A DNA stretch of 63,223 nt from Anolis carolinensis (taxonomy: Eukaryota): contig NW_026943826.1 in assembly GCF_035594765.1 (NCBI RefSeq), positions 12,566,102-12,629,324 of the forward strand, read 5' to 3'. Shown here piece by piece: positions 35,983 to 38,389 of this stretch. The first letter of the stretch is position 1. Each line of letters opens with the position of its first letter. The position numbers and the translations under genes are program-made. Below the pieces are notes generated by a model, which saw only the letters and a list, made by a program, of their open reading frames with translations, did not search any database and was not told the DNA's origin.

Positions 35983-38389
35983 ATGGGGAGAACATCCTTG
36001 TTTCAAGCGGTGGTTGTCGTCTTTTGTAAGTAACGACAAACTATTATATTTAAGTCTTGTTGTGTCCGATTCTCCATTTCTAAGCCGAAGAGCCGGCATT
36101 CTCCACAGACACCTCCTAGGTCATGTGGCCACGGGCATGACTGCATGGAGCACTGTTAGCTTCCCGCTGGAGCAGTACCTATTGATCTACTCACACTTAC
36201 AATGTTTTCAAAATGCTAAGTTGGAAGGAGCTGGGGCTAACAGCAGGAGCTCACCCCACTCCCTGGATTCGAACTGCCGATCTTTCGGTCAGCAAGTTCA
36301 GCAGCTCAGATATTTATTTTTTTATTACTTGATATTTATTATATTTTTATTACAAATAATGATAGATAATGATTATTATCTATCATATTTGCATTTAAAG
36401 TCCTATCTATTATATTTATTGTTTATTATGTTCATAAACAGCATCCTAACTATATTATATTATTATTTATCATTTATATGGCCTATGTTTCCTCTATTTA
36501 TTATGTACAATTTATCATATATTTATTGCATTTATTATACACAATTTATTATATCTATGCAGAATCCTGACTATGATATTTATTAATTTATTATAGATAT
36601 ATCTATTATAGATATATAGATACATCTATAACAGATATATAGGAGCCACCGGTGGCGCAACGGGTTAAAACTGAGCTGCTGAGCTTGCTGACTGAAAGGT
36701 CGGCGGTTCGAATCCGGGGAGGAGGGTGAGCTCCCGATGTTAGCCCCAGCTTCTGCCGACCTACCAGTTCCTTCCAACTCTATGGTATTTCTTGAAAGGG
36801 AAAAAAGCTGGATTGACAGAAGTTTGGTGAATTANNNNNNNNNNNNNNNNNNNNNNNNNNNNNNNNNNNNNNNNNNNNNNNNNNNNNNNNNNNNNNNNNN
36901 NNNNNNNNNNNNNNNNNNNNNNNNNNNNNNNNNNNNNNNNNNNNNNNNNNNNNNNNNNNNNNNNNNNNNNNNNNNNNTTTTTCCTAGGTGTTTCCACTGT
37001 TCCTGGGAAGGAGGAAGAGCGTGAAAAGATGGTGACGGATGTGATCAAAGTGAATGGGAGCCTCTTCCGGTCCTATGGATGCTATTGCGGCACCGAAGGC
37101 CTGGGCAGTGGAGAACCCAAGGACTACATTGATATGTACATAGGAGGACATGCATGATGCGCTCAGAATCGGGACCCTTCTGCATCTCTCTCTCGACCCA
37201 TCTGTCCATGCTTCCATCTTGATCTTTACACTTTCATCTCCACCTTGATCTTCATCTTCATCTTCATTTTAATCTTGATCTTCACCTTCACTTTCATTTC
37301 CATCTTCTTCATGAGCTCCATTCTCCAACTTGATCTCCATCTCCAACTTGATCTCCATCATGATTTCCATTCTCCACCTACTTCATGATCTCCATCTCCA
37401 CTTCCTTCATGATCTCCATTCTCCACTTTCAACTTCATCTTCTCCAACTCGATCTCCATCTCCATCATGATTTCCATTCTCTACCTCCTTCATGATCTCC
37501 ATCTCCACTTCCTTCATGATTTCCATTCTCCACCTCCTTCATGATCTCCATTCTCCACTTTCATCTTCGACTTCATCTTCTCCAACTTGATCTCCATCTC
37601 CATCATGATTTCCATTCTCCACTTCCTTCATGATCTCCATTCTCCACTTTCATCTTCATCTTCTCCAACTCGATCTACATCATGATCTCCATCTCCACTT
37701 CCTTCATGATCTCCATTCTCCACTTTCATCTTCAACTTCATCTTCTCCAACTCGATCTCCATCATGATCTCCATTCTCCACCTCCTTCATGATCTCCATC
37801 TCCACTTCCTTCATGATCTCCATCTCCACTTTCATCTTGATCTCCATCTCCACTTTCAACTTGAATGTCCATTATTAATACCTTTTTTCCTCTTTTGCAG
37901 GTGCTGCCAGATCCTGAACTGCTGCTACGAGGTTCTGAAGGGTTCGAGGTGTGACGCCAAAGCCACCAGCTATAAATATATTTACGATGGAGAAAACGTT
38001 GAATGCTGTGAGTTTGTACAGTCTCTTTAAAATAACCTCTTGCCTTCTTTCTGTCGTTTCTTCCTTCTCTTTCCTTTCTTCTTTCCATTTATCCTTACTT
38101 CTTTCTTCTCTTCTTTCCTATCTTCTCTGTCTTCACGGGTGGCCATGGTGGGGTGTCCGGTCTCCTTGCTGACACTTCATCTCTTCCTTTCCTTCCTTGG
38201 GCAGCAGGGATGGCGAACAACTTTGCGTGGTGCAAGGCGAATGTCTGCTCCTGCGACAGGCACTTCTCCCTCTGCCTCCTGGATGCTCATGGACTCTTCA
38301 ACCGGGACCACCTTGTCTCTTCTTCGGGGCCCAGAGCGTGCGGTGAAAGAAACCCCACCGAGTGCAACGTGGAAGGAAGCTCCTCCTGA
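35983..38389 (+). CDS. Group II PLA2-like secreted protein, predicted catalytically inactive (His48Leu, Asp49Asn), 160 aa
   Basis: Exons 35983-36025 (MGRTSLFQAVVVVF, T|GTAAGT), 36988-37135, 37901-38007 and 38205-38389 (NAGNAG alternative 38208); phases 1/2/1 as in the paralogues; no stops. Motifs YGCYCGTEGLGSG, CCQILNCCY and CSCDR; all 14 Cys kept. AATAAA at 38669 and 38691 plus a GT-rich element. The exon 2 donor (GTACAT) is weak and an N run lies in intron 1. Confidence 0.85.
36055..36310 (-). mobile_element. Sauria SINE fragment
   Basis: ggagctggggctaacagcaggagctcacccc...ggattcgaac...tcagcaagttcagcagctcag, the reverse complement of the tRNA-derived head. Confidence 0.82.
36641..36770 (+). 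mobile_element. Sauria SINE 5' head (A box ggtggcgcaacgg, B box ggttcgaatcc)
   Basis: Pol III boxes followed by gtgagctcccgatgttagccccagcttctgcc. Inverted relative to the 36055 copy. Confidence 0.82.
37200..37862. repeat. Pyrimidine-rich (catgatctccattctccacttcctt) minisatellite in intron 2 of PLA2 gene 3
   Basis: Visible tandem repetition. Confidence 0.88.

Follow-up and report, generated by a model that had tools for sequence, protein, structure and literature searches.

A probable pan-lizard phospholipase A2 pseudoenzyme in the Pla2g2 cluster of Anolis carolinensis

A group II phospholipase A2 (PLA2) gene of Anolis carolinensis, at 35983..38389 on the plus strand, is predicted to be catalytically dead; we call it the dead-PLA2 gene. 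It raises the question of whether a lizard has kept a PLA2 for something other than catalysis, and if so for what. Coordinates are those of the window, the whole stretch of DNA analysed, 63,223 nucleotides in length. Dead secreted PLA2s (sPLA2s) are as such an already known kind, comprising Lys49 toxins, acidic toxin subunits, otoconins and PLA2G12B. Those of the group II cluster have so far been described mainly as recent viper toxins, and a pan-lizard dead member means that the cluster gave rise to a gene without enzyme function early on and in a non-venom setting. It fills in a branch so far lacking from a well-studied model of how gene families evolve, and corrects misleading toxin-like database names. 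Literature searches by title or abstract found no description of a dead lizard PLA2 clade. The main text of bioRxiv 583344 contains no non-catalytic lizard gene, though its figures and supplements (alignment, exon maps) may include one, and the clade is not described in excerpts of PMC7767849, PMC9256536, PMC7583969, PMC11594849, PMC12421130, PMC13645638, PMC3038909, PMC3991680, PMC9000839 and PMC8143647.

Gene anatomy and genomic setting

A preliminary description of this DNA reported four intact exons with group II phases, no stop codons and 14 cysteines, and re-reading the sequence gives the same result for all four exons (Table 1). The mature chain, which starts at 37008, has 14 Cys, 20 D/E and 15 K/R residues, a pI of 5.2 and one N-glycosylation sequon (37053-37061). 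Its calcium loop has a two-residue insertion and no Gly32, and Tyr52 and Asp99 are retained. The whole protein matches PF00068 with 74.9 bits against a cut-off of 32.1, and single coding exons match weakly. RefSeq XP_062821631.1 (Anolis carolinensis), auto-named 'phospholipase A2 homolog EPL_00195-like', is the same protein, with 100% identity over the exon-2 query.

Table 1 Positions of the dead-PLA2 gene, its neighbours and its decayed copies
Feature	Position	Strand	Remarks
Exon 1	35983..36025	+	contains the start codon and the beginning of the signal peptide; phase 1; matches RefSeq protein P0001
Exon 2	36988..37135	+	end of signal peptide, acidic first helix, sequon, remodelled calcium loop; phase 2
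Exon 3	37901..38007	+	catalytic helix; phase 1; single copy in genome
Leu48 and Asn49, replacing His48 and Asp49	37914..37919	+	codons CTG AAC
Exon 4, coding part	38208..38389 (alternative acceptor 38205)	+	codes for the Asp99 helix and a clade-specific motif following it, then the C-terminal extension and stop
Two AATAAA hexamers	38669..38696 (starts 38669, 38691)	+	possible poly(A) signals, not above chance
Gene 1, exons 2-4	24968..27950	+	likely Pla2g2F (position next to MUL1, tree); His48/Asp49 intact
Gene 2, exons 2-4	33271..34990	+	likely Pla2g2G0; His48/Asp49 intact
Gene 4, exons 2-4	53977..58264	+	Pla2g2E, grouping 99/96 with a Podarcis 'group IIE' protein; His48/Asp49 intact
GIDE-domain exon, MUL1 flank	13915..14346	-	PF12483, E 2.7e-22
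Decayed segmental copies	G000:C14:8553850-8555576; G000:C16:551590-554146		genome; partial copies of the dead-PLA2 gene (L004, L007, L008)

The replacements H48L and D49N, also read previously, are confirmed at the codon level. Contigs from two of four public runs cover these codons and show no difference from the assembly, hence no CAC GAC. As these contigs agree, and the RefSeq protein and six orthologues show the same losses, an assembly error is excluded. Two finer points of the earlier reading are revised. The exon-4 acceptor placed at 38205 is a tandem CAG-CAG acceptor at which RefSeq uses 38208, and the latter fits because orthologues carry an aromatic residue there; the poly(A) signals amount to two AATAAA hexamers where 2.5 are expected by chance in 3180 bases. 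The exon-2 donor called weak does lack a +5G and matches U1 at five of nine positions, but three of the eight other scored PLA2 donors match likewise. No in-frame alternative donor lies within 160 bases. Four low-depth public runs of uncertain type, taken to be RNA by guess, assemble into five unspliced contigs (depth 3-7) that cover exons 3-4 only and contain no exon joint. In intron 3, an A>T difference at 38120 in three of the four runs is either a polymorphism or an assembly error.

A motif scan and tblastn place four PLA2 genes in the window, all on the plus strand; tblastn finds no fifth in the window, of which some stretches were masked. The order in Anolis is MUL1, gene 1, gene 2, dead-PLA2 gene, gene 4, OTUD3, so that the dead-PLA2 gene sits between the likely g2G0 and g2E. 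MUL1 and OTUD3 flank the squamate Pla2g2 cluster (bioRxiv 583344; excerpts of PMC9256536). The OTUD3-like start, about 10 kb beyond the window end, is a weak match (E 0.016 to an OTUD3 structure) that the OTU family scan did not detect. Gene 2 has a two-residue deletion after Tyr52 in common with viper PLA2s; it groups with a Pogona domain at 99/97, and the trees have no supported join to viper proteins. Since lizard g2G0 is the non-toxic form (bioRxiv 583344), the earlier label of a 'venom-type' neighbour for this likely g2G0 gene was overstated.

Three further observations concern the surroundings. No conventional g2D gene was found between genes 1 and 2 (27950-33270, some stretches masked), and an active D-type gene exists in Pogona and Elgaria; possibly the conventional g2D was lost in Anolis. 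Between MUL1 and gene 1, a weak tblastn match to PLA2 exon 3 at 16443-16523 (E 0.006) is either chance or a relic exon. Just 3' of the dead-PLA2 gene, 33 nearly identical 99-base units (38735-42041) form an array that is open for >1100 codons on both strands, and related 33/66/99-base arrays run on to ~44740.

A lizard clade and its origin

Protein searches recovered six further orthologues, from A. sagrei, Sceloporus undulatus (partial), Elgaria multicarinata, Hemicordylus capensis, Heteronotia binoei and Euleptes europaea. Together with the Anolis protein they represent Iguania (three), Anguimorpha, Cordylidae and Gekkota (two), and this coverage of geckos, scincoids, anguimorphs and iguanians presumably corresponds to about 200 million years. 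None of the seven has His48 (Leu in six, Arg in one) and none has Asp49, which is Asn49 throughout, while all 36 comparators, chosen as having an intact His48-Asp49 pair, carry both. Gly32 is gone behind the two-residue insertion in 7/7, and Gly30 (7/7), Tyr52 (7/7) and Asp99 (6/6) are present. The first helix bears acidic residues at positions 2, 3 and 6 in every member, Phe5 is replaced by Arg in 6/7 and residue 102 is aromatic in 6/6. The pI of all six full-length members is 4.7-5.2, against 6.1-8.8 for the neighbouring PLA2s. A sequon at residue 16 is found in 6/7 orthologues, and the 14 Cys are kept across the clade, the Hemicordylus model having 13. Compared with the 36 comparators, the clade-invariant residues include Glu6, Asp11, Tyr40-Ile41, Asn49 and Asp72, to which are added Ala-Asn before helix 3 and Asp-x-His-x-Leu-Phe after the last helix, where the C-terminal alignment columns are gappy. 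The accession numbers of the Elgaria and Hemicordylus orthologues adjoin another group II PLA2 whose contig is of equal length, an indirect sign of the same locus.

Snake, lacertid, agamid and varanid orthologues were absent from the 6 of 1453 candidates that passed, an outcome that hinges on annotation and is not evidence of loss. Exon 4 alone has no match among PDB sequences, and the ESM Atlas search returned generic PLA2 clusters only. The part of the marine iguana proteome supplement (PMC8143647) that was searched contains none of three short motifs, and the femoral-gland PLA2s in excerpts of two lizard papers are cytosolic-type or long proteins.

Mixture-model trees were built from 64 of 176 rows and from 32 rows, with invertebrate, fish and long-branch rows left out. 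Both recover the seven orthologues as one clade with support of 100/100, on a long stem branch of 2-3 changes per site. The sisters in the best trees are turtle Pelusios P0010 (His49) and tuatara P0011 (Lys49), with support of 83/98 and 93/98, and the highest measured identity outside the clade is 41%, to P0010. AU tests reject none of six alternative partners, namely g2G0 (p 0.40), lizard D-type (0.37), viper (0.28), otoconin-22 (0.18), g2E (0.13) and g2F (0.056). Given this result and the long stem, D-clade descent and the turtle/tuatara link are statistically unsecured. A FastTree of all 176 rows, in which the clade joined another long branch, was discarded.

Two hallmarks point to the D-type: Trp before Cys91 and Leu106 occur in 6/6 clade members, as in mammalian IID and turtle P0010 and in contrast to genes 1, 2 and 4. 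These hallmarks were chosen in this analysis and are not a published definition; Leu106 occurs also in one viper Lys49 protein. By them and by its central position in the cluster, the dead-PLA2 gene looks like a member of the D-clade. The amniote ancestor is inferred to have had three or more g2D genes, located between E and F/C (bioRxiv 583344), and the dead-PLA2 gene would fit as one of these. It resembles PLA2G2D and reptile g2D in cluster, four-exon plan, 14 Cys and both hallmarks, but these enzymes keep His48, usually Asp49 and a hydrophobic first helix, whereas the clade has lost all three and is acidic. With P0010 and P0011 it shares, besides the sister position, a Gly-Glu-Pro-Lys-Asp loop end; both, however, retain His48 along with the hydrophobic helix, P0010 is basic, and both are predicted proteins only.

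P0010 and P0011 are in their own right group II PLA2 predicted proteins lacking Asp49 outside vipers, and the Lys49 of tuatara would be independent of that of viper Lys49 toxins. Asn49 is also seen in hedgehog P0061/P0042 and cattle-family P0017. P0186 and P0187, whose records name the bacterium Stappia indica, cluster at 90% with viper vaspin, come from contigs of <700 bases and are likely contamination in public data.

Viper Lys49/Ser49 homologues and the acidic subunits of vipoxin and crotoxin, the source of the RefSeq auto-names, resemble the clade in having a group II fold without activity. They are recent venom derivatives of g2G, however, and the Lys49 forms keep His48 and are basic, whereas the dead-PLA2 gene occurs in non-venomous lizards and is much older. 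With Leu48, Asn49 and a pI of 5.2, the Anolis protein does not have the identity of a viper Lys49/Ser49 myotoxin, and it is probably no venom subunit.

Selection and decayed copies

Among iguanians, the mature Anolis protein shares 88% identity with that of A. sagrei and 77% with Sceloporus (over 78 residues); with the four non-iguanians the figure is 57-62%, about the level of active paralogues. For scale, g2F of Anolis is 83% identical to Sceloporus and 70% to Hemicordylus, for which the dead-PLA2 gene gives 60%; g2E of Anolis and Podarcis share 63%, and gene 2 is 62% identical to Pogona. From these values the dead-PLA2 gene has evolved a little faster than g2F and within the range of g2E and gene 2 (62-63%).

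Two decayed segmental copies in the Anolis genome (Table 1), diverged by 8-14% in non-coding sequence, provide an internal comparison. The C14 copy lacks exon 3 and part of exon 4; the C16 copy lacks exons 3-4, has a 9-base deletion in exon 2 and also bears exon 4 of gene 2. When A. sagrei serves as the outgroup, nine of the ten amino-acid changes seen in exon 2 are assigned to the copies and one is unassigned, while the dead-PLA2 gene has none, an asymmetry (9 vs 0) with p 0.004. In the C-terminal tail, one difference falls on a copy, two on the dead-PLA2 gene and three are unassigned, and by this comparison the tail of the protein is, at sequence level, loosely constrained. Considering the losses shared within one clade and the constraint relative to the decayed copies, we regard a pan-lizard pseudoenzyme under selection as highly probable. 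The suggestion of a selected pseudoenzyme in a lizard, made in the preliminary description, is thus strengthened by the same losses in four lizard lineages and by this constraint, and selection has likely maintained the gene ever since geckos and anoles last shared an ancestor.

The C14 match is not a retrocopy, intron sequence being kept, and is instead an internally deleted segmental copy. Capture by a mobile element is unsupported; matches to the flanking segment number 13 and are confined to four small contigs. Each decayed copy is followed by the same downstream repeat region, and related segments lie on C13 and elsewhere on C17. An intronless PF00068 match at G000:C1:238558948-238559226 (-), covering 93 profile positions without a stop, is possibly a PLA2 retrocopy.

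Predicted function and its alternatives

Catalysis requires His48 and the Asp49/Gly32 calcium site, and His48 mutants of human IIA have a few percent activity at most (excerpts of PMC7583969). Because the protein lacks these residues, its calcium-dependent lipolysis is predicted to be nil, and hence a protein without enzyme activity is expected. In sPLA2s the first helix serves membrane docking, and positions 5 and 102 belong to the substrate channel. The acidic first helix, Arg5 and aromatic residue 102 therefore suggest that docking has probably been lost and that no phospholipid is taken up; the channel is likely blocked.

The AlphaFold2 model, a step proposed earlier for the protein alone, keeps the sPLA2 fold. 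Built from 84 aligned sequences, it has a pLDDT of 82 and matches solved sPLA2s with Z 16.5-17.6 and rmsd 1.7-2.0, best of all a group X sPLA2 (Z 17.6, rmsd 1.7 over 123 residues); the next match has Z 3.6. Residue 22 of the model aligns to residue 1 of the solved structures. As the 84 sequences are mostly active enzymes, the model leans to the family fold, and it shows the sequence to be compatible with that fold, which does not imply independence from alignment bias. From the seven orthologues alone the pLDDT is 40, which is uninformative.

In humans, T-cell inhibition by PLA2G2D is mostly independent of catalysis and may proceed through an as yet unnamed receptor (excerpts of PMC13645638). 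By analogy, the dead-PLA2 protein may be a secreted non-enzymatic ligand; we give this slightly less than an even chance, and consider it the best fit because a stable secreted scaffold and a new conserved surface remain. The preliminary description had named a receptor ligand among the possible roles, and that is also our best guess. In such a history, a D-clade duplicate would first have lost Asp49, as its turtle and tuatara relatives suggest, and the loss of His48 would have come next, in early squamates. A catalysis-independent signalling role, as of mammalian PLA2G2D, would have been kept and respecialised, with the disulfide scaffold (pairing predicted) now displaying the new invariant residues, and the product would be a glycoprotein that is secreted and binds, as a ligand, a protein of the cell surface or the matrix. 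Mammalian IID and lizard D-type P0018 (pI 9.0) are charged differently from the acidic clade, so the binding surface would not have been inherited unchanged. The clade is a natural tool for asking how group IID PLA2 signals without catalysis. The fuller picture is of a cytokine-like lizard pseudoenzyme some 200 million years old in the venom PLA2 cluster, whose stepwise loss of catalysis, with Asp49 going in a D gene of early reptiles and His48 in the ancestor of squamates, long predates the viper Lys49 toxins and which represents either a catalysis-free PLA2G2D signal or a second, convergent otoconin; it is tentative, and as a whole rather improbable. If its cytokine-like side is true, the protein would be a natural catalysis-free PLA2G2D signal and a handle on the receptor.

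A biomineral matrix protein converged on otoconin-22, serving as a CaCO3 template in lizard otoconia, endolymphatic sacs or eggshell, is an unlikely alternative. Otoconin-22 is the main amphibian otoconial scaffold (excerpts of PMC3038909), and the frog protein is likewise a dead PLA2 fold without His48, acidic (pI 5.4, 19 D/E : 16 K/R), glycosylated nearby and with Ile41 in common. It belongs to another locus and orthogroup and keeps Asp49, however, which is gone in the clade, and the acidity of the latter is mild. Anolis also has its own otoconin-22 gene, L012 (G000:C17:6888218-6890845, minus strand), 5.7 Mb from the dead-PLA2 gene, which groups with frog otoconin-22 at 100/99. Because L012 takes that place, the dead-PLA2 gene is rejected as the otoconin-22 orthologue, although the AU test alone does not reject a joint clade. 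L012 keeps His48 and Asp49 and has a pI of 8.4, unlike the acidic frog otoconin-22 with its Gln48; L012 may be an active enzyme in lizards, and the mineral role may accordingly have moved to another gene.

We give a similarly small chance to a non-enzymatic partner that inhibits or chaperones an active group II PLA2 encoded next to it, like the acidic chains of vipoxin and crotoxin. An acidic dead protein does lie beside neutral-to-basic active paralogues, and the adjoining accessions in Elgaria and Hemicordylus agree with this, but tandem origin accounts for the clustering. PLA2 toxin heterodimers bury a hydrophobic first helix, and in the clade acidic residues replace it. In vipers, g2G duplicates gave rise to such heterodimers at a late stage (bioRxiv 583344), whereas the clade is far older and has D-type rather than G-clade hallmarks, and the gene beside it in Anolis is likely the non-toxic lizard form (bioRxiv 583344).

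A lipid-binding carrier or lipid chaperone of the secretory pathway is a shade less probable still. The dead PLA2G12B, a conserved pseudoenzyme with Leu for the catalytic His, is an ER lipid chaperone, and Tyr52, Asp99 and, in the model, the fold are retained in the clade. PLA2G12B belongs to the atypical group XII, a different structural branch with an independent loss, and the acidic docking face would argue against lipid binding, as would channel positions 5 and 102, where the side chains are bulky or charged.

Other or residual catalysis through Asn49, Tyr52, Asp99 or the invariant His after helix 3 is very improbable: Asn49, Tyr52, Asp99 and the C-terminal His are invariant, but the human IIA mutants mentioned above argue otherwise, the calcium ligands are lost here too, and retention of Tyr52 and Asp99 is also explicable by the structural roles that they have as well. 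We would be equally surprised by a pseudogene in decay that has kept its frame through chance alone, for which the weak exon-2 donor and orthologues known from only seven species might speak, since the frame, the cysteines and the clade-specific residues are kept from geckos to anoles and exon 2 differs so asymmetrically from the decayed copies.
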